A stretch of 64,000 bases of DNA. It comes from an uncultured bacterium (lineage in GTDB: Bacteria; Patescibacteriota; Minisyncoccia; UBA6257; 2-01-FULL-56-20). The first letter of the stretch is position 1. Each line of letters starts with the position of its first letter. Below the pieces are notes generated by a model. It ran no database searches. It was not told the DNA's origin and saw only the letters and a program-made list of their open reading frames with translations. Shown one piece after another: positions 40,236-52,192 of the stretch. Both the position numbers and the translations under genes were made by a program. The stretch covers positions 353,521-417,520 of the forward strand of contig CAWDZM010000001.1 in assembly GCA_963807165.1 (NCBI GenBank), written 5' to 3'.

Positions 40236-41345
40236 TTATTGAAGAGTAAAATCGTTTGTATTATTGTCCGTATCCACCATCATGCCGTCCGACGATCGGC
40301 GCGAGAGCAATTGATTCGCGCCGGGACTCGTCGGATACGGAGGACCTTCGCCGTATTGGCTGGTGCCGGTCCCCCACGCAACCGCGTCAACAATATTCCC
40401 CGTTGCATCCATAAGTGCCACGCTGTTATCCACCGCCAAGGTCTCCGTACTCGACACGTTTGCGGCCACCGTTTCAGAAAATCCTCCAGTGGAATTCGCC
40501 CACACAAAGAATTGTCCTGCGTCGATCGTGCTACCAGCAGGAAATTCCTTTAATGAATAGTCCGTTCCCGTCTCCGATTTTTTGTGAAGCTTCCATCCGC
40601 TTACATCAATCGCCGCCGCGGTGGGGTTGTAGAGCTTCACAAGATCATTACTTGAGGATGCACCACCGATCTGCACCGCGGCGATAAGAATGTGACCCAC
40701 GACAGCACCAGCGACGTCTGTCGGCGTGGTTGTCGGCGTTAGCGCGGCGGTGGAAGTGGCCGACGTCGCATCATCAACAGAGGCGACGTCGGTGCTACTA
40801 GCCTCCGCCGGCAACGAGGATGACGCAGAAGATGAAACATTTACATCGGGATTTTGTGCTGCAACGCTCGGCGGTATGGGGTTGGTGTTATTTGGAATCG
40901 CGATAGATATTGGCACACTCGTTGCAACACTTGAAGTAATTGCGTTCTTTGCAATAACACTGATCGTAGCGGACGCCACCGGTGCGGTGGTACTCACGGA
41001 TTTAGTTATTGGCACACTGCTTGTCTGCGCAATCGCCACGACAGATTGCGCTGTCGGCGGCGTAGCAGTAGATACCGCAATATTATTTTTCTTTTGCACC
41101 GCCTTTTTGGGTGTGGATGCCGCTGGCACAACCGATGCATCTGGAGTAGAAGTTGGCGTATCGACGTCCGACCCATCATCAAGCGCCAACGACGATGACG
41201 CGTCATCCACAATGGCATCGGATTGCGGAGTACTGATGCCGATCATATTATTTATTTCCATCGGATAGCAATAATACGCAACGCCTGCGCCAACAATGAT
41301 AACGACCGCGATAAAACCTACATTGAAATATTTTTTATTGTTCAT
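40236..41345 (-). CDS. Lamin-tail-domain (LTD) surface protein with an N-terminal TM and an S/T-rich stalk
   Basis: ILIAAVQIGGASSSNDLVKLYNPTAAAIDVSGWKL...FPAGSTIDAGQFFVW is a canonical LTD signature. Confidence 0.7.
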   Translation of the reverse strand: MNNKKYFNVGFIAVVIIVGAGVAYYCYPMEINNMIGISTPQSDAIVDDASSSLALDDGSDVDTPTSTPDASVVPAASTPKKAVQKKNNIAVSTATPPTAQSVVAIAQTSSVPITKSVSTTAPVASATISVIAKNAITSSVATSVPISIAIPNNTNPIPPSVAAQNPDVNVSSSASSSLPAEASSTDVASVDDATSATSTAALTPTTTPTDVAGAVVGHILIAAVQIGGASSSNDLVKLYNPTAAAIDVSGWKLHKKSETGTDYSLKEFPAGSTIDAGQFFVWANSTGGFSETVAANVSSTETLAVDNSVALMDATGNIVDAVAWGTGTSQYGEGPPYPTSPGANQLLSRRSSDGMMVDTDNNTNDFTLQ

Positions 41346-41448
41346 GAAAATAACGTACCACAAAGGGCATTAAAACAATCTTAAAAAGAGATCGAAAATC
41401 TCACCCAGAATTAATCTTCTTTTAATGTCATCCTTGTATGCTCTATAA

Positions 41449-41910
41449 ATGTCGATAAAAGAAAAATTATGGCGCATTCATGAACGACAGATAAGACGAA
41501 CAAAACCCGAAGCATATATTTCGATCATTAAAATACGGCTGGCAAAAATCACAAAGAGAACCCGACAGGCGCTACATTGCCACCAAAGAAAAATCTATAT
41601 ACAAACCCGTGCGCTAAAACATCTCTACGACAAAAAGCCCGCAGAGGAGTTTGATTTTCTGATCGATCACCTAGAAACTATCATTCGAAATCCGGAGCTT
41701 TTATACAAGAATAAAAATAACAAAACCGGTGATTTCTGTATTACAAAAAAGATCGATGACCACCGATATATCGTCATTATTGAAGTGGTAAACAGACAAA
41801 CCGCACAAGAAGAAATTTTCATCGTCACCGCCTTCCGCATACGGGACGAAAAATATCTAAGAAATTACGATCTCTTACGGAGCTGGAGGGACGGCGCCCG
41901 CTCATCGTAA
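41449..41910 (+). CDS. Hypothetical protein encoded in a very AT-rich (<30% GC) segment
   Basis: 153-aa basic protein. The composition is atypical for this genome. Confidence 0.45.
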   Translation: MSIKEKLWRIHERQIRRTKPEAYISIIKIRLAKITKRTRQALHCHQRKIYIQTRALKHLYDKKPAEEFDFLIDHLETIIRNPELLYKNKNNKTGDFCITKKIDDHRYIVIIEVVNRQTAQEEIFIVTAFRIRDEKYLRNYDLLRSWRDGARSS

Positions 41911-41979
41911 CGTGACAGCGCCGGTAACCCGGCGGAATCACGACCTGCAGTAGAGCCGAAAGATAGCAATAGCCATCTT

Positions 41980-42010
41980 GGGAAATCTTGTTTCCCTTTT
42001 CTGCGTTTTC
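41980..42010 (+). terminator. Rho-independent terminator
   Basis: GGGAAA-TCTTG-TTTCCC followed by TTTTCTGCGTTTTC. Confidence 0.5.
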
Positions 42011-42148
42011 AACTCCGCAAGAGATTGCAACTTCTTTTCTTTATACTATCTCAATTTTATCTAGTCATATATTTTAGTCAAATTTCTTTTAATGATTTTT
42101 TAATAAATCGCACACGATGCGGATTATTTGATATAATAAAGGGACGTC

Positions 42149-42778
42149 ATGAACCTCAAGACCATCCTCATCACCACGTCCTGCGTCGCAGTCGTATTCT
42201 GCCTCATTACATTTTACGTGGTGTTCTATGGCGGCAGTGGCACGTACGTGGTCAGCTCGTCGCTCGGGCCGAACGCGGGGATTTTTGCCACGAGCACCGC
42301 GCCGACCAATACAACGCCGAGTTCCACCGCATCATCCACGCTCGTCTTTGCATCATCGTCCATTGACTCCAGCACGTCATCCCCCACCCAGATCGGCGCG
42401 CCAGCCGTCACGTGGATAGAGGGCGGCGAAACACTTTCCGCCACTGGCGCCACATTGTCCGGCACACAGCTGACGCTCGAGGTGCAGGTCGCGATGGGAT
42501 CCGCTGGCGAGTGCGTGCCGCTCAACCTGCGCATGATCGCGGATGAACAGGGCGACCTTTCGCCGCCGATCACGCCGCAATTCACCTTCCCCGACACCGG
42601 CACCTGCAACGGCACCGCCGGCGAAACATACAGCGCCCAGCCGATCGTCTTCACGCTCTCTTCGCCCGTCGCGTTCCCCATCATCTTCACGACCGGCGGC
42701 ACAGCGAACATCCTCTTTGAGGTCGCGCAAAACGCGGATGGAAGTCTGACTGTGCAGCTACCGCCGAACTCGGATTAA
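42149..42778 (+). CDS. Hypothetical secreted/TM-anchored protein
   Basis: N-terminal TM ILITTSCVAVVFCLITFYVVFYG, an S/T-rich linker and a Cys-containing C-terminal domain. Confidence 0.5.
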   Translation: MNLKTILITTSCVAVVFCLITFYVVFYGGSGTYVVSSSLGPNAGIFATSTAPTNTTPSSTASSTLVFASSSIDSSTSSPTQIGAPAVTWIEGGETLSATGATLSGTQLTLEVQVAMGSAGECVPLNLRMIADEQGDLSPPITPQFTFPDTGTCNGTAGETYSAQPIVFTLSSPVAFPIIFTTGGTANILFEVAQNADGSLTVQLPPNSD

Positions 42779-42838
42779 AAAATGGTTAAAAGGCGGCTAT
42801 TGAAAATAGCCCGTTATCTGTTAGAATAGTATTCGTAT

Positions 42839-42910
42839 TCCGCGATAGCTCAATGGTAGAGCGGCGCCCTGTTAAGGCGATGGTTCCAGGTTCGAGTCCT
42901 GGTCGCGGAG
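42839..42910 (+). tRNA. tRNA-Asn (anticodon GTT); CCA not encoded
   Basis: Hand-folded cloverleaf. Acceptor TCCGCGA/TCGCGGA with U1-A72. D-arm GCTC-AATGGTA-GAGC. Anticodon arm GCGCC-CTGTTAA-GGCGA with GTT at positions 34-36. T-arm CCAGG-TTCGAGT-CCTGG. Discriminator G73. Confidence 0.85.
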
Positions 42911-42975
42911 CAGTCTAGTTTTAGTATCGGACAGACCGAGAGGCATCGATTTTTGCTATCTTTTTTGAAGCCAAA

Positions 42976-42987
42976 AGTTCGAGTCCT
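42976..42987 (+). repeat. Short duplicate of the tRNA-Asn T-arm 3' segment (candidate att remnant)
   Basis: aGTTCGAGTCCT at 42976-42987 matches gGTTCGAGTCCT at 42889-42900. Confidence 0.3.
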
Positions 42988-43052
42988 ACTCCCATAGTCT
43001 CTAGGACACCGAACTTATGATGGTTTTCTTCTCCAAATGGTAGAATACAACC

Positions 43053-44090
43053 ATGGATTTCGTTAAGCTCAACAAACTTAAAAAAGGCGACAAGATTGCT
43101 ATTCTCTCTCCTTCTTTTGCTGCGCCAGGGAAATGGCCTTGGGTATATGAATTGGGATTGAAACGCCTGCGCGAAGTCTTTGAATTAGAGCCGGTGGAAT
43201 TTTCCGTTACAAAAAAGATAGGCGCTTCAAAAGAAGAGCGATCCAAAGATTTGATTGATGCGTTTGAAAATAAAGAGATAAAGGCGGTCATCGCATCGCT
43301 CGGCGGCGATGATCAAATAACCTATATTAAAAATCTTCCTGTTACGCCATTCATCAATAACCCGAAGCCATTCTTTGGATTCAGCGATAATACCCATTTT
43401 GAAAACTTCCTATGGCTCCATGGCATTCCTTCGTATTATGGCGGATCACTCTTTACCGAATTTGCGATGCAGAAACGGATGGATCCGTATACGATCGAAT
43501 ATCTCAAACATGCATTATTTAACGAAGGAGAGTTCGAATTGAAATCAAGCGATACCTATAACGATATGGGGCTTGATTGGAACGATCCAGAGAACCTCGA
43601 CAAAGAGCGTATCTACGAAAAGAATGATGGATGGTTCTGGGATGGGACGCAAAACGCCGAAGGGATCACGTGGGGTGGATGCGTTGAATCCATTGACGAG
43701 CTTCTGCGACACGGGGTTCAGATCCCATCGCTTCAGGATTTCGAGAATGTAGTGCTTTTTACAGAAAGCTCCGAAGAGATTCCTTCCGCAGATTATGTCT
43801 ATCGCGTATATCGTGCTCTTGGCGAACGCGGAATATTGCAGCACGTGAAAGCCGTACTGACCGGTCGTCCGAAAGCATGGGAATTTGGAAAAGAACGCAA
43901 CGTGGAGGAAAAAAGTATGTACAGAAAATCACAGAGAGAAGCGATTACAAAAGCAGTGAAGCAATATAACCAATCGATTCCAATTATTCACAATATCGAT
44001 ATTGGGCATACCGCGCCGCAGATTCCCCTGCCGAATGGAAGACGAATACGGATCAATATGAAGGATGAGGAAATCTTTGTGGATTTCTAA
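43053..44090 (+). CDS. S66-family LD-carboxypeptidase (LdcA/MccF-like)
   Basis: KGDKIAILSPS, GFSDNTHF (catalytic Ser) and IDIGHTAPQ (His). It lies in the AT-rich island. Confidence 0.8.
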   Translation: MDFVKLNKLKKGDKIAILSPSFAAPGKWPWVYELGLKRLREVFELEPVEFSVTKKIGASKEERSKDLIDAFENKEIKAVIASLGGDDQITYIKNLPVTPFINNPKPFFGFSDNTHFENFLWLHGIPSYYGGSLFTEFAMQKRMDPYTIEYLKHALFNEGEFELKSSDTYNDMGLDWNDPENLDKERIYEKNDGWFWDGTQNAEGITWGGCVESIDELLRHGVQIPSLQDFENVVLFTESSEEIPSADYVYRVYRALGERGILQHVKAVLTGRPKAWEFGKERNVEEKSMYRKSQREAITKAVKQYNQSIPIIHNIDIGHTAPQIPLPNGRRIRINMKDEEIFVDF

Positions 44091-44099
44091 AATTAAACA

Positions 44100-44819
44100 A
44101 TGACAAAAAAGAAAAAAAGCCCAATATCGGTCCTTTTTATCGGAAATAGTTTTAGCTACTATCATAGTTTGCCAAAACTGATAGCTCGTTTCGCCAGCAC
44201 ATCAGGTTCGGGTGATCTTTTTGTGGATGGTGTTTTTCGCGGAGGTGCAACCCTTAAAATGCTCTAGGACGATGGCCAAGCGCTTAAAAAACTCCAAAGC
44301 AGAAAATGGGATTACGTTGTCCTTCAAGAGCGAGGGCGGCTGGGAGGTATCATTAAAAATGGCGTAGTTCATGTGGGAAAACCTCAGGAGTTTGCCAGAT
44401 ACGCAAGTCAATTTAATAAGGAAGCAAAGAAGAGCGGAGCAAAAACAATTCTCTATTGTCCTCCTTCATTTATTGGCATCGGCCTTCTTAAGGATGCGAA
44501 GAAACTAAATACACTGTATGCAACGGTAGCCAAAAGATTGCATGCTCAAATGATCTCCACTGAACCTGCCTTTACGCTCGCCATGAAAGAGCGACCTGAT
44601 ATAAGTTTGTTTGAGCGCGATGGACATCATCCAAATTCTGCAGGAATCTATCTCATCGCCAATTTGTTTTATAGAAAGCTGTTTCGGAAAAAGATATCCG
44701 ATCTCCCCTTAGAATCGTACTCGTCTAAATCGCAACATCTTCCTAAAAATCCCAAAGTAGTGAAATTATCCGACAGAGATGCTCGGCTTCTGTGGTCAAT
44801 CGCTAATCGGATGAAGTGA
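44100..44819 (+). pseudogene. SGNH/GDSL-like hydrolase interrupted by one in-frame TAG (codon 56, 44265-44267)
   Basis: MTKKKKSPISVLFIGNSFSYY...LKML-TAG-DDGQALKKLQSRKWDYVVLQERG...DGHHPNSAGIYL. The frame is continuous across the stop; ORF 44373..44819 is the downstream part. Confidence 0.6.
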
Positions 44820-44903
44820 TTGTTTAAAGACAACTTAACCTTAATATAAAACTCGACCCCACCAAGACTCGAACCGGATTTTCAATAAAATCGAAAACAA
44901 AAA

Positions 44904-45434
44904 GTGAGGTTTTTCAACACTTTTTTGAAACTAGTTCGAGTATCAGTGCAGGAGCAGCTTAAATCGTCAAGTCGAGTGCATCCGCCGATGTGGTATAATT
45001 TAGAAAACGTTATGCTTTCCAAATTAAAGCATTGGCTTAACGAGGAGGAATCACTAACAGTCAAGCAAAGAATTGGGTATACATTTCTTTATCCGGTTTG
45101 TTTTGTCATAATTATGTTCGGATTGGCGATCGGACATATAGCTCTTGATTTTATCGGAAGCGCTATAGCTACGCAGATCGTTCAATCTTCATATCCCACT
45201 AGTCCGTCCTGGGCAGTTGGCCTAGAAAACTTTTTTAACGCTGATTTTTGGGGTGGCCCAGTCAGCACGAATATGGAGAACATACTTACTATTTTTGTGC
45301 CGCTCTGTATTCTAGCGTATTCTATAATCGTTTTATGGGTATGGAAGTCTTTGAAAAAATCTGGCATTGTTGCACTGTTATTTATTCCTGACGTTATAAT
45401 TTATTTGATCGTTGCGGTCATCGGAATGCGGTAG
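44904..45434 (+). CDS. Hypothetical polytopic membrane protein (island)
   Basis: 4 TM helices. It shares a ...IVLWVWKSLKKSGIVALLFIP... module with the next gene. Confidence 0.45.
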   Translation: MRFFNTFLKLVRVSVQEQLKSSSRVHPPMWYNLENVMLSKLKHWLNEEESLTVKQRIGYTFLYPVCFVIIMFGLAIGHIALDFIGSAIATQIVQSSYPTSPSWAVGLENFFNADFWGGPVSTNMENILTIFVPLCILAYSIIVLWVWKSLKKSGIVALLFIPDVIIYLIVAVIGMR

Positions 45435-45599
45435 GTAATCCCTCCACCAGGTTCGAACACTTTCCACGATTCGGAGCATCGAAGGATGAGCGGGGCGAGA
45501 AGCCCGGTTTTTCTTTTTGTTTACTGTCCCAGCACTGAAATTCCAAGTCGCGAAGCCAAGGCGCCTTGTATTTTCTTCTCATGGTAATATCATTAAGTT

Positions 45600-46352
45600 A
45601 TGAATAGTCAACCGCTATCAAAAAAAGCTGTCGTCCTTTTTTCTATTTTATATCCGATTGCTTATATCGGGGGAGGATTAATATTTTTAATAATAAGCAT
45701 AATTCTTTCTGATAATGTGGCTCTCTCCAATACTTTTCCCATAGTAGTCATGGATGTTTTGTATGGGGGTGAATTACCTCCTAATGGAGTGAATGTCCCC
45801 GCATTTTTCCCATTGGCTTTCATTGCAATTATTGTTATTTGCATAATCGTATTGTGGATAAAAAAATCATGGATCAAATCATTGATTCCTTTGATTTTTA
45901 TTATACCTTTGGTTTTTTTTGCTTTTACTCAAATGTCAGCTTGGGATAAGCAAAATACTGAAATCAGCATGGCGAAAAGCGCAGCTGCTGAAAACGATGC
46001 TGTTCTTCAGTCAATTAATTCCAAAGAGATTTTTTACTGCGGCAGCAACCAAGCATATATTCAGTTTGAAGGCGGTCCTCTAAATAATGCTTATGCCATG
46101 TACGCTGTTTATAACGAATGGACTTCGGGTAATGGTAAGATAGTGGCGAAAGTTTTGCTTGCGGAACTTTTAGCCAACGGTACCGACTATTATATTTTCA
46201 CCCATAATTCTGAACAATATATAAATTATAAGAATATTAACCCGACTAACGCAGATTATTCGTCAAAGCTTGATTCCTGCGTTGATGCGCATGGTAAAAC
46301 TTTCTCACAATTGTATAATCGTGTCCAAAACTTACCAAATGACCAAGCCTAA
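45600..46352 (+). CDS. Hypothetical membrane protein with a C-terminal extracellular domain (island)
   Basis: The N-terminal TM bundle is paralogous to the previous gene (IIVLWIKKSWIKSLIPLIFIIP). Confidence 0.5.
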   Translation: MNSQPLSKKAVVLFSILYPIAYIGGGLIFLIISIILSDNVALSNTFPIVVMDVLYGGELPPNGVNVPAFFPLAFIAIIVICIIVLWIKKSWIKSLIPLIFIIPLVFFAFTQMSAWDKQNTEISMAKSAAAENDAVLQSINSKEIFYCGSNQAYIQFEGGPLNNAYAMYAVYNEWTSGNGKIVAKVLLAELLANGTDYYIFTHNSEQYINYKNINPTNADYSSKLDSCVDAHGKTFSQLYNRVQNLPNDQA

Positions 46353-46826
46353 TCAGGGTATGAGACCTATTCTTATTTCGTCATTAAATAGGTTCGCACA
46401 GCCAACAACGGGAGTAACTTTCAAAGCTACTTTGACAAGGCTTTTGTGAACTATTATAATCGCACATAGTTTCAAAATATCTGAAAGGGGCGTATCGCCA
46501 TGACTTGCAGATCTGCTTCCCCTCTCCCGCTAGCACACACTATCACCCCAACCCGAAGGATCAACCATGGGGAGAATCTTGTTCACGCTCTTCATCAAGG
46601 ATTTCCGTTATGCGGATTTACGCAAGCGTTTCCACGCGACTGGCCGGACGGAAATATTTGGACGGGAATCAGCGATCTCGGACACATCACGTGCCCGTCA
46701 TGCAAACAGAAAGCTGAGGCCTTTACAAAGAAAGTATGACCGAGGACCCCATCCTCAAGGCCCGGCGACGATTCAAACGCTTACTATGGAGACGCCAATA
46801 CGGGGGAATGTTTCCTGAATGGCGTT

Positions 46827-47297
46827 TTGCACGTAACCTCTGTCAGTAGGGGTGCAATCTGGTATATCGTCGACATGGATGCCCTAAGAAACGCTGACGA
46901 GTTGATGGCGCTGAATCACTTTGCCCACTATCAGACTGGGACGGTGGCGGGAATCGGCGGGACACTACCCGCGCTCCTGCGGTCGGAGATCTCTCTTTCT
47001 GCGAATTTTGGCCAAGGGATGGGTGTACGTATGAGCGGAAATACCGTTCAAATCGGCGATGCAACGCTCGTGTTACGGGTGAAGACAAACGATGGAATAT
47101 ATACCATCCAAGCGCTTGGAAGCGACGGGAAAGAACGACGGCAGTCAATCGTCGGCCTTGCCTCTGCCATCACCAACGGCACCAAGGTCAGCTTCCCTGT
47201 CGATCTCCACATCTTCAAGCAATCGGAGCCAAATCCAATTTTTTCTTCGAGCAAAATCGGCCGTATGGACGCCGAAGATATCGAGGTATTGAATTAG
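46827..47297 (+). CDS. Hypothetical protein
   Basis: 156-aa ORF followed by a strong terminator. Confidence 0.4.
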   Translation: MHVTSVSRGAIWYIVDMDALRNADELMALNHFAHYQTGTVAGIGGTLPALLRSEISLSANFGQGMGVRMSGNTVQIGDATLVLRVKTNDGIYTIQALGSDGKERRQSIVGLASAITNGTKVSFPVDLHIFKQSEPNPIFSSSKIGRMDAEDIEVLN

Positions 47298-47313
47298 GAT
47301 CAGGCACAAGTCA

Positions 47314-47351
47314 AGGCACAAACAATTTTCAAACGTTTGTGCCTTTTTTTA
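47314..47351 (+). terminator. Rho-independent terminator
   Basis: AGGCACAAAC ... GTTTGTGCCT followed by TTTTTTT. Confidence 0.65.
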
Positions 47352-47386
47352 ATCTCCTTCCGCCAGAAGGCTCAAGTGATGTAACC

Positions 47387-48298
47387 CTACACCACGGCCC
47401 CGATAGCGATCGTCGCAAACAACGCCACCATAACGATAAGCGAAAGAAAGAACATCTGCCGCGCCCAGCGCTTGTTTGCAGTAACGGCATGGGGAGCGGC
47501 GCCATCGCCATCACCAGGCAAAAAATATCCACGCACGCCGAGTGCAAGCCATGCGATGCCCAACACGAGTGCGATCACAAGATAGACGGGGCCCGCGTAA
47601 CCGAACACAAAGAGTAAGCTAGCGGCGGCGATAAATTCGATGATGTAGATCAGCATACTGAATTTGGTGCGGCGGATGCCATAGCGAACGGGCATCACGG
47701 GGATTTTTGCGGCGGCGTAATCATCCTCGCGCCTAATGGCGATCGCAAAAAAGTGTGGCATCTGCCAGACGAGCATGATCACAAAAAGAATGAGCGCCGC
47801 CACATCGATCTGTCCGCGCGACGCGGCGTATCCCACGACCGGCGGCGTTGCGCCGGCGATCGCGCCAAGAAATGTGCCATACACCGTGCGGCGCTTTCCC
47901 CAGATGGTGTACGCGAAGACGTAGAAGATAAAACCGGTCAGCGCCGCAAGCGTCGCCTGAAGATTGGTGCAGAAAAATAATATAAGGAATCCCGCGGCGC
48001 CGATGACGTACGCAAAAATCAAGGCGTTGCGGACGGACACCGCTCCGTTGATGAGCGCGCGATCCTTCGTGCGATCCATTTTTATATCGATATCCCGGTC
48101 AATACAATTATTAAAGACACATCCCGACGCCATCACGAGCGCGATGCCAACGAGCGTGGCAACGAGCAGCCATAGGTTCACCGCCAGAACTCCACCCGCA
48201 CCCGCGAGCACCCGCGCGCCGAGCAAAAATCCCGCGATCACCGTGATGAGATTTCCAAAGACCAACCCCGACTTCGTAAGCTCGTAATAATATTTCAT
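47387..48298 (-). CDS. cyoE: Protoheme IX farnesyltransferase (heme O synthase)
   Basis: UbiA fold. CVFNNCIDRDIDIKMDRTKDRAL carries the NxxxDxxxD motif. 8-9 TM helices. Confidence 0.9.
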   Translation of the reverse strand: MKYYYELTKSGLVFGNLITVIAGFLLGARVLAGAGGVLAVNLWLLVATLVGIALVMASGCVFNNCIDRDIDIKMDRTKDRALINGAVSVRNALIFAYVIGAAGFLILFFCTNLQATLAALTGFIFYVFAYTIWGKRRTVYGTFLGAIAGATPPVVGYAASRGQIDVAALILFVIMLVWQMPHFFAIAIRREDDYAAAKIPVMPVRYGIRRTKFSMLIYIIEFIAAASLLFVFGYAGPVYLVIALVLGIAWLALGVRGYFLPGDGDGAAPHAVTANKRWARQMFFLSLIVMVALFATIAIGAVV

Positions 48299-48310
48299 CG
48301 CGCGATAGAA

Positions 48311-48670
48311 CTAAAATCCATCCTGGCTTTGAATGTACGCATTCATATCCGCCGGCGATGCCATCATGTTGTAGTTCAGGTGATCCATGATCCAGATAGA
48401 GCCGATGACAATGATAAGGATGATGCCCACGGTGCCGGCAAAAACGCCCAGCCTCCACCGCGGTCCGGACTCCCCCGCAAGGTGCATGAAGAAAATAAGT
48501 TGAACCAGAAGCTGGATGAGTGCGAGCGCGATCAGGATTCCAATGACGGTGATGCGGGAGATCATTCCATCTCCAAAATGGATATTCATCCACACAAGCC
48601 ATGCCGCAGAAAGCGTCAAAACAAGCGAGAGAACGAATCCGATGATATATGATCTAAGCGTTGCTTTCAT
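48311..48670 (-). CDS. cyoD: Heme-copper quinol oxidase subunit IV
   Basis: 119 aa, 3 TM helices, in the cyoABCD position. Confidence 0.75.
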   Translation of the reverse strand: MKATLRSYIIGFVLSLVLTLSAAWLVWMNIHFGDGMISRITVIGILIALALIQLLVQLIFFMHLAGESGPRWRLGVFAGTVGIILIIVIGSIWIMDHLNYNMMASPADMNAYIQSQDGF

Positions 48671-48671
48671 A

Positions 48672-49286
48672 TTATTTTATTATTCCCATAAGATAGACCG
48701 TTGTGAAGATAAATATCCAGACAATATCCAAGAAGTGCCAAAAGATGGTGAAGCGGTTGAGCTTTGACATCACCGCAGGCGTAAGGCCGCGGAGTTTGAG
48801 CTGAGCGATCGCAACGACGATCCAGAGCAGGCCTATGGAAATATGCAGACCGTGCGTACTCACGAGTGTAAAGAATGCCGAAAGGAACGCGCTCTTCTGC
48901 CAGCTCGCGCCCATTCCGACAAAGCGCGAAAATTCGCTAAGCTCGAGCGTGAGGAATGTTGCGCCAAGCACAAACGTGGCGGCAAGCCATGCGATCGTTT
49001 GATTCACTTTCCCCCGCTGGGCCGAGATCAACGCCAAGCCGCACGTAAAGCTGGAGGTAAGGAGCACGAGCGTGCTCGCGAGCGCCGTCGGCAAGCTGAA
49101 TAGATCATTGGATGAAGGTCCGCCGAATGTATTCGCCTTGAGAACAAAGTACACCGCGAAGAGCACGCCAAAGATCACAAGGTCGGTCATCAGATAGACC
49201 CAAAAACCAAACATGTGCCTGTCGGCGCGTGCGACTTCCGCAAGCGTCGCGTTTATATCATTTTGCTTCTTTATTATTTTTTCCAT
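48672..49286 (-). CDS. cyoC: Heme-copper quinol oxidase subunit III
   Basis: 5 TM helices. ...IFWHFLDIVWIFIFTTVYLMG at the C-terminus. Confidence 0.85.
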   Translation of the reverse strand: MEKIIKKQNDINATLAEVARADRHMFGFWVYLMTDLVIFGVLFAVYFVLKANTFGGPSSNDLFSLPTALASTLVLLTSSFTCGLALISAQRGKVNQTIAWLAATFVLGATFLTLELSEFSRFVGMGASWQKSAFLSAFFTLVSTHGLHISIGLLWIVVAIAQLKLRGLTPAVMSKLNRFTIFWHFLDIVWIFIFTTVYLMGIIK

Positions 49287-51257
49287 GCCAGTGTTTCCAT
49301 TTTTTCTATTTCTGCAGCGGGGATCACATACTCCGTATGTTCATCAAACGAACGGATGATGACGCACGCCACGCAGCCGATCACGCCAAGCGCCATCAGC
49401 CAGAAGATGTGCCACACCGCGCCGAACGAGAATAAAAAGAAAAATGCAGAAAGGTAAATAGCCATGCCGGTATTCTTTATTAATTCGATGTCCTCATATT
49501 CCGCAGACCCCGCCGGGCGCGGCCACTTCCCCGCCTTCTTCATTTCCCAAAATGCATCGCGGGAATCCACCTCCGGCGCTTTCGCAAAGTTATAGAATAG
49601 CACCGGCGATGACGTTGCCCACTCGAGCGTATGCCCATCCCACGGATCACCCGTCGTATCCATATTTTGATGCCGCTCGCGAACGCTCACAATCACCTGC
49701 CACACCTGCATGAGCACACCGGCAGCAATGATGCACACGCCGATCCCGGCAACGATAAAATACGGCTGATACCCCGTGGACGCAGCATAGTGATCAAGCC
49801 GGCGCGTCGCGCCCATGAACCCTAATATATAGAGTGGCACGAATGACATAAAGAATCCCACGATCCACAGCCAGAACGCGCGCCGCCCGATCCGCTCATT
49901 TAATGTGAATCCCATGATCTTTGGAAACCAATACGTAATGCCCGCAAAGATGCCAAAGAGCGCAGCGCTCACGATCATCGTGTGGAAATGCGCCACGAGG
50001 AATAGGCTGTTGTGCAATTCAAAGTCCGCACCGGGCAAACGAAAGCAAAACGCCCGCCATACCGCCGAACGTGAATAAGCTCACAAATCCCATAAAATAC
50101 ATCATCGGCGTGGAAAACCATATCCTTCCGCGGTACATCGTGGCGATCCAATTGAAGATCTGCACGGCGGTGGGGATCGCGATAACCCCCGTCATGATGC
50201 CAAAGAACGCATCCACGTCCGCACCGGCACCCATCGTAAAGAAGTGATGTAGCCATACAAGAAACGAGAGCAGAGTGATAGCGATCGCGGCGCACACCAT
50301 CGAAACATAGCCGAATATTTTTTTGCCGGAAAACGTGGCGACGACTTCGGAGAATATGCCGAACGCAGGGATCACAAGGATGTAGACCTCCGGATGGCCC
50401 CACATCCAGATCAGGTTCACATACAACATCGGATTCCCACCAAAACCGGAGGTAAAGAAGTGCATCCCAAAAAATCGATCAAGCCAGAGAAGGAGCGTCG
50501 TCGCAGTAAGCACGGGAAACGCGGCAACGACGAGTGCCATACTACAAAGCGAAGTCCACGTAAAAAGCGGCATCATCATGAGCTTCATCCCCTTCACCCG
50601 CATCTTTAATATAGTGACGATGAAGTTGATGCCGCCGAGCAGTGATCCGAGCCCGGAGATCTGCAAGCTCCATATCCAATAATCCACGCCGGTGCCGGGG
50701 CTGTATTGCAACTCCGAAAGCGGTGGGAGCGAGAGCCAGCCGGATGCGGCAAACTCGCCGCCGACCACAAAGAACATATTGATAAATATCGCGCCGGCGA
50801 CGTAAAGCCAGAACCCAAGCGAATTCAAAAATGGAAAGGCCAGGTCGCGCGATCCGATCTGCAAAGGCACGATCAAATTCATGAGGCCAAAGAAAAATCC
50901 CATCGTCACAAAGAACACCATGATGTCGCCATGCGCAGTGAAGATCTGCTGAAAGTGGCTCGCGTCAAGATATCCCTGCGAGTTGCCTGCCGAAAGCGCT
51001 TGCTGTAACCAGATCATCATCGCATCCAATCCCCCGCGGAAAAGCATGAGTGACGCCATGATGATATACATGATCCCGATCTTTTTCGGATCCGTGGAGG
51101 TGAACCAATCATTCCAAAGCCACTTCCATCGTTTGAAATACGTGACGACCCCGGCGGCAATAATGAGCATCACAAAGATGGCCACTGTTCCCCCGATGGT
51201 AAACCATTGATGCGGAAGGTCGCTCCATGTAAGATTGCCGATAAGAAAATGGATCAT
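49274..51257 (-). CDS. cyoB: Heme-copper quinol oxidase subunit I, split by a 1-nt frameshift near 50035-50045
   Basis: ORF 50019..51257 ends ...GGMAGVLLSFARCGL* and ORF 49274..50038 begins MPGADFELHNSLFLVAHFH. Removing one T from cgTTTg (plus-strand AAA at 50037-50039) gives ...GVLLSLPGADFELHNS..., matching the subunit I consensus. His ligands are present (WGHPEVY, HHFF). Confidence 0.85.
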
Positions 51258-51259
51258 TT

Positions 51260-52192
51260 TTACATTTGCATGCCCGGCATATCCGCAGGCATGGAGGAGG
51301 TCGGCGTTGGTGTTAGTGTTGAAGTCGAATATGATGATGGATTTGTCGACGACGACGCCATCGTGGTCGTCGCGCCCATCCCTGGAATCATATACTTCAT
51401 TAAAATCGTATCATACAACGCCGGGTCAACCGAGGAATAATAGATAGGCGCAACATATTCGCTCGGCGGCGCGAGCGTGGCATTATAGTCATCTATCGTC
51501 AGTGTGTTGGATGAATTCTTGACCGACGCGATCCACGCGTTGAAGTCACTTTGCGAAACCGATTTGGCGGTGAACGTCATCCCGGCATAGCCCGCGCCAT
51601 TGATCTCTGTATCTTTGCCAACATACTGCCCCGTGGAATTTGCTTCCAGGCTCAGCTGGGTCTGCATCGCGGCCATCGCGTAGATCTGACTGCCAAGCTC
51701 CGGGATCCAGAACGAGCTCATCGGCGCGTCGGCAGTCAGCGAGAAGTGCACCGGCGTAGCCACCGGAAACTCCAGAAAATTTACCGTCGCAATCCCCTGC
51801 GCCGGATAGATAAAGAGCCATTTCCACTGAAGCGCAACAACTTCAACGTTGAGCGGCGGGTTGGCAGACGCGATCGGCTTATACGGATCGAGGGCATGCG
51901 TGCTTTGCCAGTTTATTACCGCGATTACCACGATGAGCGTCGCCGGAATCGTCCACCAAAGCAGCTGACGCCAGATACCGCCCACATGCTCCGGATCGTA
52001 CTTTGCCTTTTTATTCCCCGCCCGATATTTCCACGCAAAGGTATACAGCAAAATGAGCATCGGGATGGCGATCAGAAGCATAAGAACAACCGCGAGAATG
52101 ATCAGATTCCGTTCCTGTAATGCTATCGGACCCTGTGGATCAAATACGCCTCCGGACATTTTTCTATTGTACCATGCGAAGAAATCCCCCAA
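51260..52192 (-). CDS. cyoA: Heme-copper quinol oxidase subunit II (no CuA cysteine motif, so quinol- rather than cytochrome c-oxidising)
   Basis: Two N-terminal TM helices and a cupredoxin-like domain (WKWLFIYP...SSFWIPELGSQIYAMAAM) without the CxxxC CuA ligands. An S/T/M-rich C-terminal tail. Confidence 0.85.
   Translation of the reverse strand: MGDFFAWYNRKMSGGVFDPQGPIALQERNLIILAVVLMLLIAIPMLILLYTFAWKYRAGNKKAKYDPEHVGGIWRQLLWWTIPATLIVVIAVINWQSTHALDPYKPIASANPPLNVEVVALQWKWLFIYPAQGIATVNFLEFPVATPVHFSLTADAPMSSFWIPELGSQIYAMAAMQTQLSLEANSTGQYVGKDTEINGAGYAGMTFTAKSVSQSDFNAWIASVKNSSNTLTIDDYNATLAPPSEYVAPIYYSSVDPALYDTILMKYMIPGMGATTTMASSSTNPSSYSTSTLTPTPTSSMPADMPGMQM

Follow-up and report, generated by a model that had tools for sequence, protein, structure and literature searches.

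The locus described here lies on contig CAWDZM010000001.1 of an uncultured Patescibacteriota bacterium, in a stretch of 64,000 nt that was analyzed as a whole and is called the window below. All positions refer to the window unless a locus of a related genome (L001, L129, etc.) is named. The locus is a low-GC block placed directly 3' of an intact tRNA-Asn(GTT) gene (42839-42910/11; ARAGORN; Rfam, 68.8 bits). It carries, in this order, the genes of an S66 peptidase and of an SGNH-like hydrolase interrupted by a nonsense mutation, the gene of a 148-aa membrane protein, and the gene of a 250-aa orphan membrane protein. These genes make up modules of 0.4-2 kb that stand in a row after the tRNA, each of them closed by a degenerate copy of the segment that runs from the T-loop to the 3' end of the tRNA (Table 1).

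The block is foreign to its surroundings in composition. Between 42912 and 46416 the G+C content (GC) is 40.9%, against 51.7% in the rest of the window, which is 7.8 standard deviations (SD) below windows of the same size (minimum 49.1%). The tetranucleotide distance of the same segment is 0.40, against 0.19 ± 0.03 for other windows (maximum 0.27). An earlier note on this DNA had described a fall in GC from 55% to 35% at tRNA-Asn; the fall is real, but it goes from about 52% to about 41%, and only the last cassette is near 36%. The foreign sequence begins 3 nt past the discriminator base and leaves the tRNA undamaged, as in islands that target tRNA genes, and GC is back to about 50% beyond the last boundary site (46389-46416). 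Window 42885-47388 is present at 99.98% identity in a second, independent assembly (L003) as well, and the array junctions are thus not an assembly chimera. An Rfam scan of the island returned the tRNA only, and nothing matching window 41000-47500 was found in E. coli genomes.

Five sites of the form AGGTTCG-N11-17-GGAGCAG, all on the + strand and all similar to the 3' end of tRNA-Asn, start at 42886, 44931, 45440, 45532 and 46389 (sites 0, 1, 2, 2b and 3). The 7-nt core GGAGCAG seen at the junctions consists of the last nucleotides of the tRNA and three bases of its trailer. The shorter pattern GTTCG-N10-20-GGAG has four + strand matches in 42890-46414, every one of them intergenic, against an expectation of 6.3 for the two strands of the window together (128 kb). 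An ungapped search of the window for a distal copy of the tRNA end, at up to 8 mismatches, found none; the distal sites (44931-44957, 45440-45478, 45532-45557 and 46389-46416), which do not reach significance on the window alone, became visible only through comparison between genomes, and they are supported by the ends of shared tracts and by conservation in other genomes. The view that the island is bounded and subdivided by direct repeats resembling the tRNA 3' end is borne out by the sites at 44931, 45440, 45532 and 46389. The repeats at the distal border (44931-44957 and 46389-46416) are not those that the earlier note had listed.

The T-arm sequence GTTCGAGTCCT, for which a second copy 3' of the tRNA had been reported, does recur exactly at 42977-42987, and with one mismatch on the - strand at 44864-44874. 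Three of the four matches in the window with at most one mismatch fall inside the island, where 0.8 are expected in the whole window. The copy at 42977 is not a simple att remnant, however; it serves as the 5' arm of a hairpin of 42 nt that is conserved in the leader of the S66 gene. The weaker match CCAGGTTCGA, reported near 45449, was located at 45446-45455 and turned out to mark a true module boundary; it lies within a 39-nt repeat that is present six times in L082.

The S66 module has a near-identical counterpart in another genome. Window 42894-44957 corresponds to L001 9842-11905 at 99.4% identity, with 10 of the 13 differences in the first 100 nt. Only three differences remain in 42994-44957 (99.85%), one of them being the G-to-A change that creates the stop codon of the hydrolase. 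L001 is partly syntenic with the window, and the flanking orthologues are 64-76% identical in nucleotides and 52-69% in amino acids. Identity between the two loci rises from 88% to 99.85% within the hairpin of the S66 leader (last mismatch at 42993), and the shared tract stops at 44957, the last base of GGAGCAG in CTAGTTCGAGTATCAGTGCAGGAGCAG, a sequence that resembles the tRNA end CCAGGTTCGAGTCCTGGTCGCGGAGCAG. As the GC of L001 (about 45%) is nearer to the 42% of the module, a lower-GC lineage such as that of L001 is the more likely source, to judge from composition, and the window copy would be decaying. The S66 module is flanked by direct repeats, 42 nt long in L001 and about 70 nt in L007. 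Vertical descent of this module is impossible, since 99.85% identity is observed between genomes that are about 30% diverged.

The identification of the peptidase is secure, as both S66 domains are matched above threshold in the product of 43053-44090 (PF02016, 69.8 bits, and PF17676, 71.4 bits, for the N- and C-terminal domains). That of its partner as an SGNH hydrolase with an in-frame stop holds for the stop, a TAG at 44265-44267 where the otherwise identical L001 copy reads TGG. The SGNH label itself is weak: it depends on a sub-threshold DUF4886 match of the intact L001 protein (22.1 bits, cut-off 26.7) and on GNS and DGHH motifs recognized by eye, and PDB entry 4I8I was matched at E = 0.5 only. 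The partner of the S66 gene is exchangeable, with no site between the two genes: it is SGNH-like in the window and L001, a NUDIX gene in L007 (11038-11439) and an adenosine deaminase gene in L040 (3245-4135). L081 and L091 keep the S66 leader, with homology stopping at 43015, but there a gene resembling P-loop nucleotide kinases (assigned by eye; 2486-3034 in oriented L091) replaces S66.

The second part of the block has a different partner. Window 44951-46404 corresponds to L129 5368-6805 (a locus also seen as L037 and L130), the bodies of the two open reading frames (ORFs) being 99.6% and 99.0% identical, while the flanks of L129 are only 69-79% identical to the window. In L129 these cassettes 2 and 3 lie about 2.4 kb downstream of tRNA-Asn, are surrounded by three sites of one sub-type, and are foreign in composition there too (GC 38.6% vs. 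50-55%). The L129 tract begins at GGAGCAG (44951), to the left of which the two genomes are unrelated; it is broken at site 2 and stops at 46404. Three tract ends thus coincide with sites, at 44957 (end of GGAGCAG), 44951 (start of GGAGCAG) and 46404 (inside site 3). Because the S66 peptidase and SGNH-like genes occur without the other cassettes in L001, and cassettes 2 and 3 without the S66 module in L129, the island comprises, to judge by these alignments, two or more modules whose recent histories are separate. The foreign and mosaic character attributed earlier to this tRNA-adjacent block is confirmed both by its composition and by the different partner genomes of its modules, but the idea of a single decayed integrative element is not, as the modules have independent partners (L001 and L129).

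No Pfam family was matched by the 148-aa protein of cassette 2, and homologues of the 250-aa protein were confined to its own cluster among 5.8 billion proteins. The claim that these two membrane proteins are paralogous could not be demonstrated (BLASTP, E = 4-17). The sequence TGGTAnnAT stands 6-12 nt before the first ATG of each cassette (43038-43046, 44991-44999 and 45582-45590), which suggests that the cassettes may be self-expressed through leaderless or near-leaderless transcripts from putative extended -10 promoters.

Table 1. Coordinates of the features at the tRNA-Asn locus in the window.
Feature	Position	Strand	Remarks
PBECR3 gene (barnase/EndoU/colicin-like nuclease domain)	41449..41910	+	40.3% GC; Pfam; outside the array
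Promoter-like site 5' of tRNA-Asn	42800..42827	+	TTGAAA-16-TAGAAT, TG before; consensus scan only
tRNA-Asn(GTT)	42839..42911	+	No encoded CCA; lacks the ~215-nt intron found in many relatives at 42872/42873
Site 0, CCAGGTTCGAGTCCTGGTCGCGGAGCAG	42886..42913	+	tRNA 3' end plus 3 trailer nt; cassettes inserted right behind GGAGCAG (clean case in L080)
tRNA-Asn trailer, TCTAGTTTTAGTATCGGACAGACCGAGAGGCATCG	42914..42950	+	In many relatives 3' of the tRNA or of internal sites
42-nt hairpin in S66 leader	42975..43016	+	Conserved; 5' arm is the T-arm copy GTTCGAGTCCT (42977-42987)
Putative extended -10-like element, TGGTAGAAT	43038..43046	+	6 nt before S66 ATG; similar elements before S66 homologues in L019 and L035
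Peptidase S66 (MccF/LdcA family)	43053..44090	+	345 aa; 43.7% GC; 100% aa identity to L001 copy
SGNH-like (DUF4886-like) hydrolase pseudogene	44100..44819	+	G to A at 44266, TGG to TAG; intact (239 aa) in L001
Inverted tRNA-3'-end-like fragment, CCGGTTCGAGTCTTGGTGGGGTCGAG	44852..44877	-	8-bp stem with site 1
Site 1, CTAGTTCGAGTATCAGTGCAGGAGCAG	44931..44957	+	End of S66 module; L001 tract stops, L129/L037 tract begins at its GGAGCAG (44951)
Cassette 2 ORF, small membrane protein	44988..45434	+	148 aa; probable start ATG 45012, after TGGTATAAT (44991-44999); 38.9% GC
Site 2, CCCTCCACCAGGTTCGAACACTTTCCACGATTCGGAGCA	45440..45478	+	Same 39-nt repeat six times in L082, once in L080, once in L007
Spacer, 53 nt	45479..45531	+	G+C hairpin and T-run at ~45491-45518; different 37-nt sequence in L129
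Site 2b, GCACTGAAATTCCAAGTCGCGAAGCC	45532..45557	+	Like tRNA-Asn 3' end and 3' end of the L001 150-nt structured repeat; L129/L130 identity restarts
Cassette 3 ORF	45600..46352	+	250 aa; three N-terminal hydrophobic segments and soluble C-terminal half; 35.9% GC; preceded by TGGTAATAT (45582-45590)
Site 3, TAGGTTCGCACAGCCAACAACGGGAGTAAC	46389..46416	+	Array end; L129 homology stops at 46404, inside the site

About 24 metagenomic relatives share the upstream gene order (LTD protein, a variable slot, a 209-aa protein, tRNA-Asn). The region 3' of tRNA-Asn is hypervariable in these loci, differing from the window and mostly from one locus to the next. An S66 gene behind tRNA-Asn is patchy, occurring in 3-4 of them (L001; L040, 81% identical in nucleotides; a remnant in L117). 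In L082, the repeat of site 2 is found six times downstream of tRNA-Asn, near-identical over 29-39 nt and always in direct orientation, and the copies separate genes for a pyridoxal phosphate (PLP) enzyme, two pilin-like LamG proteins, a lycopene-cyclase-domain protein and a major facilitator superfamily (MFS) transporter; the genes of this array lie on both strands. L080 shows a clean insertion of one cassette, reading from tRNA-Asn and GGAGCAG through a 100-aa ORF to a site of the same type (ending in GAAGCAG) and the native trailer. The trailer takes clean terminator-hairpin forms in L112, L070 and L077. Among 91 loci searched downstream of tRNA-Asn, the strict site pattern gave 9 matches, against 2-5 in control strands and sides. 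As this enrichment is only modest, such arrays are not universal in the lineage.

In many relatives the anticodon loop of tRNA-Asn is also interrupted, between anticodon bases 2 and 3 (equivalent to window 42872/42873), by an insert of about 210-217 nt. It was found in L001 (9370-9586), L039, L050, L058, L074, L080, L081, L088, L091, L095, L123 and L129. U is the last base of the 5' exon and G that of the insert, and the Rfam group I intron model aligns end to end, although below threshold (23 bits, E = 0.007). The tRNA-Asn genes that bear the insert are not called by ARAGORN; the window gene is free of it.

A structured repeat of about 150 nt, with no Rfam match, was observed at L001 9707-9860 and 12098-12248 and at L123 3811-3965, with weaker copies on the - strand at L084 2422-2547 and L126 795-941. 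It stands either at an array junction or 3' of tRNA-Asn, right behind a terminator hairpin. Its fold consists of four hairpins inside a long stem that includes base pairing between a copy of the tRNA-Asn 3' end and a complementary stretch upstream. Comparison of three copies revealed compensatory changes at 12 of 45 pairs, and folding of a single sequence gave z = -4.5. A covariance model of this repeat found no copy in the window, where a remnant of its 3' end alone is present at 45532-45557.

The association of S66 genes with tRNA genes extends beyond this locus. Close relatives of the window protein come nearly all from metagenome-assembled genomes (MAGs) of Patescibacteria, one partly syntenic locus (L036) being labelled Saccharibacteria. 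We assign the window accordingly to a member of Patescibacteria that is probably Saccharibacteria-like. In 8 of 30 genome loci with S66 homologues, a tRNA on the same strand ends within about 250 nt of the S66 start, and in a ninth (L011, where it is a second tRNA-Gln) at about 450 nt. These tRNAs are of seven kinds (Ser-tga, Ser-gga, Ser-gct, Gln, Gly, Glu and Trp). An automated count gave adjacency to a tRNA for 6 of 27 S66 genes vs. 7 of 379 other ORFs (Fisher p = 6e-5). Over roughly its first 60 nt, the leader of S66 is conserved behind tRNA-Asn, tRNA-Ser (L008) and tRNA-Trp (L035).

Copies of the tRNA end accompany several of these genes. In L020, tRNA-Ser and S66 are followed by a 26/27 copy of the tRNA 3' end (alignment score 62 vs. 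a null maximum of 23), and in L018, a complete Dojkabacteria genome, tRNA-Gly and S66 are followed by GTTCGA...GCCCGCTCCA 26 nt past the stop codon. Orphan fragments resembling tRNA 3' ends lie upstream of S66 in L009, L026 and L030. In L011 (2403-2920), the 3' part of tRNA-Gln is repeated twice more between that gene and S66. The copy nearer to the tRNA looks like the tRNA from the 3' side of the D-arm on, except that about 27 nt take the place of the anticodon loop, and the whole is a tandem att-like structure at another tRNA and in another lineage.

That the island holds no integrase had been stated before, and our searches agree. A Pfam search of about 47 window ORFs, among them every ORF of the island and 35 of the 42 that are 200 aa or longer, matched no recombinase family, and a six-frame scan of the 64-kb window for tyrosine-recombinase motifs found none. 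Pfam on 17 ORFs of related loci, of which 16 are array ORFs, likewise matched no recombinase, the arrays of L001, L082, L129 and L080 being without integrase. A match of L001 12380-13081 to Phage_int_SAM_2 was sub-threshold (20 bits) and was disregarded. No cognate autonomous element with an integrase for this att site was seen in the loci examined or in scans of viral contigs for the tRNA end and site 2. Neither the tRNA-Asn end nor site 2 had an exact match in the viral contigs, which also contained no relative of the S66 or 250-aa proteins, and a phage vector is therefore unsupported.

We read the low-GC stretch as a recombination hotspot anchored on tRNA-Asn and holding tandem mini-cassettes without integrase, which would be moved site-specifically by a recombinase encoded elsewhere. 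We hold this reading with a probability of roughly 0.55. A cassette would start directly behind the GGAGCAG core and end with its own 27-39-nt site of the AGGTTCG-N11-17-GGAGCAG form. Related genomes would gain, lose and exchange cassettes by recombination at these sites, most likely as excised circles, with the recombinase supplied from elsewhere in the genome or by a helper element, and each cassette would bring its own extended -10 promoter near the start codon.

Several observations weigh against this reading. The recombinase is hypothetical, none being found in the window or in the arrays of L001, L082 and L129, and a spacing between the boxes that varies from 11 to 17 nt among sites is unusual for the core site of a tyrosine recombinase. 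Site 1 agrees with the tRNA end at 17 of 25 positions, which is not significant on the window alone, and of the roughly 90 loci that share this tRNA end, only 5 have additional strict sites downstream. On its left side the L001 tract ends (at about 42994) in the homologous, 88% identical leader and not at a site, which is also compatible with homologous recombination. Cassettes 2 and 3 are joined by different sequences in the window and in L129 despite their near-identical bodies, so that the rule of a cassette carrying its own site fails to predict it; also, these two cassettes have so far always been observed together and never singly.

A rival account does without any dedicated site-specific system. 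DNA taken up by natural transformation would be recombined, either homologously or by homology-facilitated illegitimate recombination, with tRNA-Asn and its trailer as anchor and GGAGCAG-like microhomology at the other joint, and the repeats would be by-products or scars. Natural competence is established for Saccharibacteria, which incorporate DNA through homologous recombination (PMC10633639), and this account accommodates the off-site left end of the L001 tract, the lack of a recombinase, the variable spacing of the boxes, and the exchange of the second S66-module gene (SGNH, NUDIX, adenosine deaminase) without an intervening site. We consider it possible but doubtful. Plain homologous recombination is disfavored because the three tract ends fall on the 7-nt core with unrelated sequence past it, which leaves no homology for RecA, because six near-identical 29-39-nt repeats run in uniform direct orientation through the L082 array, and because clean duplications surround single cassettes in L080, L020 and L001. 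The same S66 leader is moreover found behind three tRNAs of distant lineages that offer no common homology anchor. The reading of the earlier note, in which one integrative element entered tRNA-Asn by its own integrase, lost that integrase and decayed, leaving the T-arm copies as att remnants, would account for the tRNA adjacency, the foreign composition, the nonsense-mutated gene and the tRNA-like repeats. It appears unlikely, since 42994-44957 and 44951-46404 have separate partners (L001 and L129), every module has its own bounding site, and modules are as small as about 0.4-0.5 kb; independent loss of the integrase in the arrays of L001, L082, L129 and L080, which also lack one, would have to be assumed as well.

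A chromosomal integron, or an integron-like cluster of attC sites lacking an integron-integrase (CALIN) whose attC cassettes would depend on IntI, is suggested by the tandem small cassettes, on one strand in the window, and by the inverted pair ACTCGAAC / GTTCGAGT around the end of the S66 module. The site 1 region does fold modestly as single-stranded DNA (ssDNA; z -2.3/-2.9), but it is the only one of the site regions tested to do so: sites 2 and 3 and the L037/L129 sites fold no better than shuffles (ssDNA; z = +0.1, -1.2, +0.8 and +0.8). The sites do not match the R''/R' GTTRRRY cores, GTTCGAG having C for R (by eye), the 64 kb contain neither IntI nor another tyrosine recombinase, the cassettes seemingly have their own promoters (TGGTAnnAT before the first ATGs), and the L082 array has genes on both strands. 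An integron thus seems very improbable. Least credible of all is the reading as ancestral low-GC genes, inherited vertically with no insertion. It can point to S66 genes that lie slightly under local GC in several lineages and to the same gene with the same leader behind tRNA-Asn in L040 (81% identical in nucleotides) and L001. The earlier note would have taken the same genes at the same site in relatives as a sign of ancestry; S66 does follow tRNA-Asn in these two loci, yet its distribution is patchy, most syntenic relatives being without it, and the identity of 99.85% vs. about 65-70% in the flanks refutes vertical inheritance for the present copies. Cassettes 2 and 3, besides, are foreign in composition in L129 too (38.6% vs. 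50-55%).

The interpretation as a tRNA-anchored row of integrase-less cassettes could be extended to a dedicated cassette-capture system of Patescibacteria, integron-like but built from different parts: a tRNA 3' end as fixed entry, sites of 27-39 nt similar to that end as the closure of every self-expressed mini-cassette, and a recombinase encoded elsewhere. The structured RNA of about 150 nt, seen at array junctions of relatives, might assist it, and S66 would be its most widespread passenger, hopping between tRNA identities throughout the radiation. We offer this extension as a speculation that is probably too broad.

The S66 peptidase resembles MccF-like proteins in its two Pfam domains, its length of 345 aa and its Ser, Glu and His motifs: GFSD, TESSEE and GHT line up with their counterparts in 5F5X, and we take the catalytic roles of these residues to be those known for the family. 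It departs from the characterized MccF and LdcA enzymes in that its closest solved relative is the uncharacterized BA3275 of B. anthracis (E = 4e-48), E. coli MccF (2e-15) and LdcA (8e-15) being equally distant, although one database source names the protein LdcA. Pfam found no mcc-like genes near the island. Immunity of the MccF type is thus neither supported nor excluded by the comparisons made here, and its role may also be the recycling of murein peptides. The nucleotide-related partners of S66 in other loci (NUDIX, adenosine deaminase) may give a weak hint of nucleotide-linked substrates.

Elsewhere the window contains housekeeping genes (LeuRS, MetRS, GAPDH, transketolase, L25 and a cyo-type quinol oxidase). 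Upstream of tRNA-Asn, a second variable slot (41387-42107) separates the LTD-domain gene from the conserved gene of the 209-aa protein. In the window it holds the gene of a PBECR3 toxin-like nuclease, for which a GC below 30% had been reported and 40.3% was measured; in L001 it holds ribonucleotide reductase genes, and in L048 and L083 other large genes. Beyond the array, a perfect sigma-70 consensus (TTGACA-17 nt-TATAAT) at 46432-46460, 16 nt past the last array site, is directed into the normal-GC segment 46500-47300, whose small ORFs have no family matches. A ctaB/cyoE-cyoDCBA cluster (47387-52192) occupies much of the segment from the array to about 52530, where the gene order shared with L001 and L007 begins again. 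It is not present there in L001 and L007, is found elsewhere in L129 (12392+), and has a distant version in L121 (24-2273), about 1.1 kb upstream of tRNA-Asn; the cluster may itself be part of the flexible region. Its subunit I gene is broken into two overlapping ORFs on the - strand (49274-51257), 50019-51257 corresponding to COX1 positions 1-330 and 49274-50038 to positions 331-435, which could be due to a sequencing error or to a frameshift, or mark a pseudogene. At 1209-1281, ARAGORN called a "tRNA-???" whose anticodon would have four bases; it had no Rfam tRNA match at gathering score and is probably a false positive.

Mobile DNA of Patescibacteria is poorly known: the genomes are tiny and have few recognizable mobile elements, yet they carry strain-specific accessory genes. 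If our reading is true, one-gene cassettes anchored on tRNA genes, passed on with hardly any change between genomes about 30% diverged, would constitute a concrete route of gene flow. They would also provide a defined and testable recombination site, which could serve for gene insertion now that Saccharibacteria are transformable. The occurrence of S66 behind many tRNA identities suggests frequent horizontal selection for this gene in epibiotic bacteria, for a role that could be murein-peptide recycling or detoxification of aminoacyl-nucleotides. Should the explanation by transformation and homologous recombination be right instead, the locus would still be a well-resolved case of a transformation-driven hotspot.

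Hypervariable islands in the proximity of tRNA genes are known from Prochlorococcus. The ssrA-linked islands of Dehalococcoides are tRNA/tmRNA-linked islands with tandem att repeats (PMC3146451). The locus resembles islands of this class in having a hypervariable block right 3' of a small RNA gene, subdivided by partial copies of the 3' end, and in its foreign composition and strain-specific cargo. It differs from them in that the units are far smaller (0.4-2 kb, one or two genes) and none was seen with an integrase, and in that the repeats keep just two short boxes at variable spacing. Another comparison is with cis-mobilizable elements (CIMEs), att-bounded elements without a recombination module of their own that accrete beside integrative and conjugative elements (ICEs) or integrative and mobilizable elements (IMEs) and are thought to be mobilized in trans (PMC5704250). 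Our cassettes are likewise att-bounded, devoid of a recombination module and placed in tandem at one attachment site, but no cognate autonomous element or integrase was found for them, they are smaller by an order of magnitude, and both the lineage and the type of site are different.

With integron arrays the locus shares a fixed entry point, a row of small and mostly single-gene cassettes, each with its own closing site, and a core of a few nucleotides at the junctions. Unlike integrons, it has no IntI, its sites do not form attC hairpins, its entry is the 3' end of a tRNA, its cassettes are seemingly self-expressed, and in L082 they lie on both strands. Modules without recombinase are also known from the Xer-dependent dif/pdif modules and the integrative mobile elements exploiting Xer (IMEX), which are small, have sites of about 28 nt, are moved by the host recombinase and appear as the same modules in different contexts. 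The geometry of pdif sites is fixed at 11-6-11, and successive sites point in alternating directions. The present modules are similarly small, recombinase-less, bounded by short sites and identical in different contexts, but the spacing between their boxes is 11-17 nt and all their sites are direct. In the literature searched, we found no description of such arrays in Patescibacteria. Tandem att repeats at tRNA or tmRNA genes and integrase-less elements mobilized in trans are known already. What sets the present arrays apart is the very small size of the self-contained cassettes, the lack of an integrase in any array seen, the variable spacing within the two-box site, the lineage, and the recurrence of S66 as a passenger.

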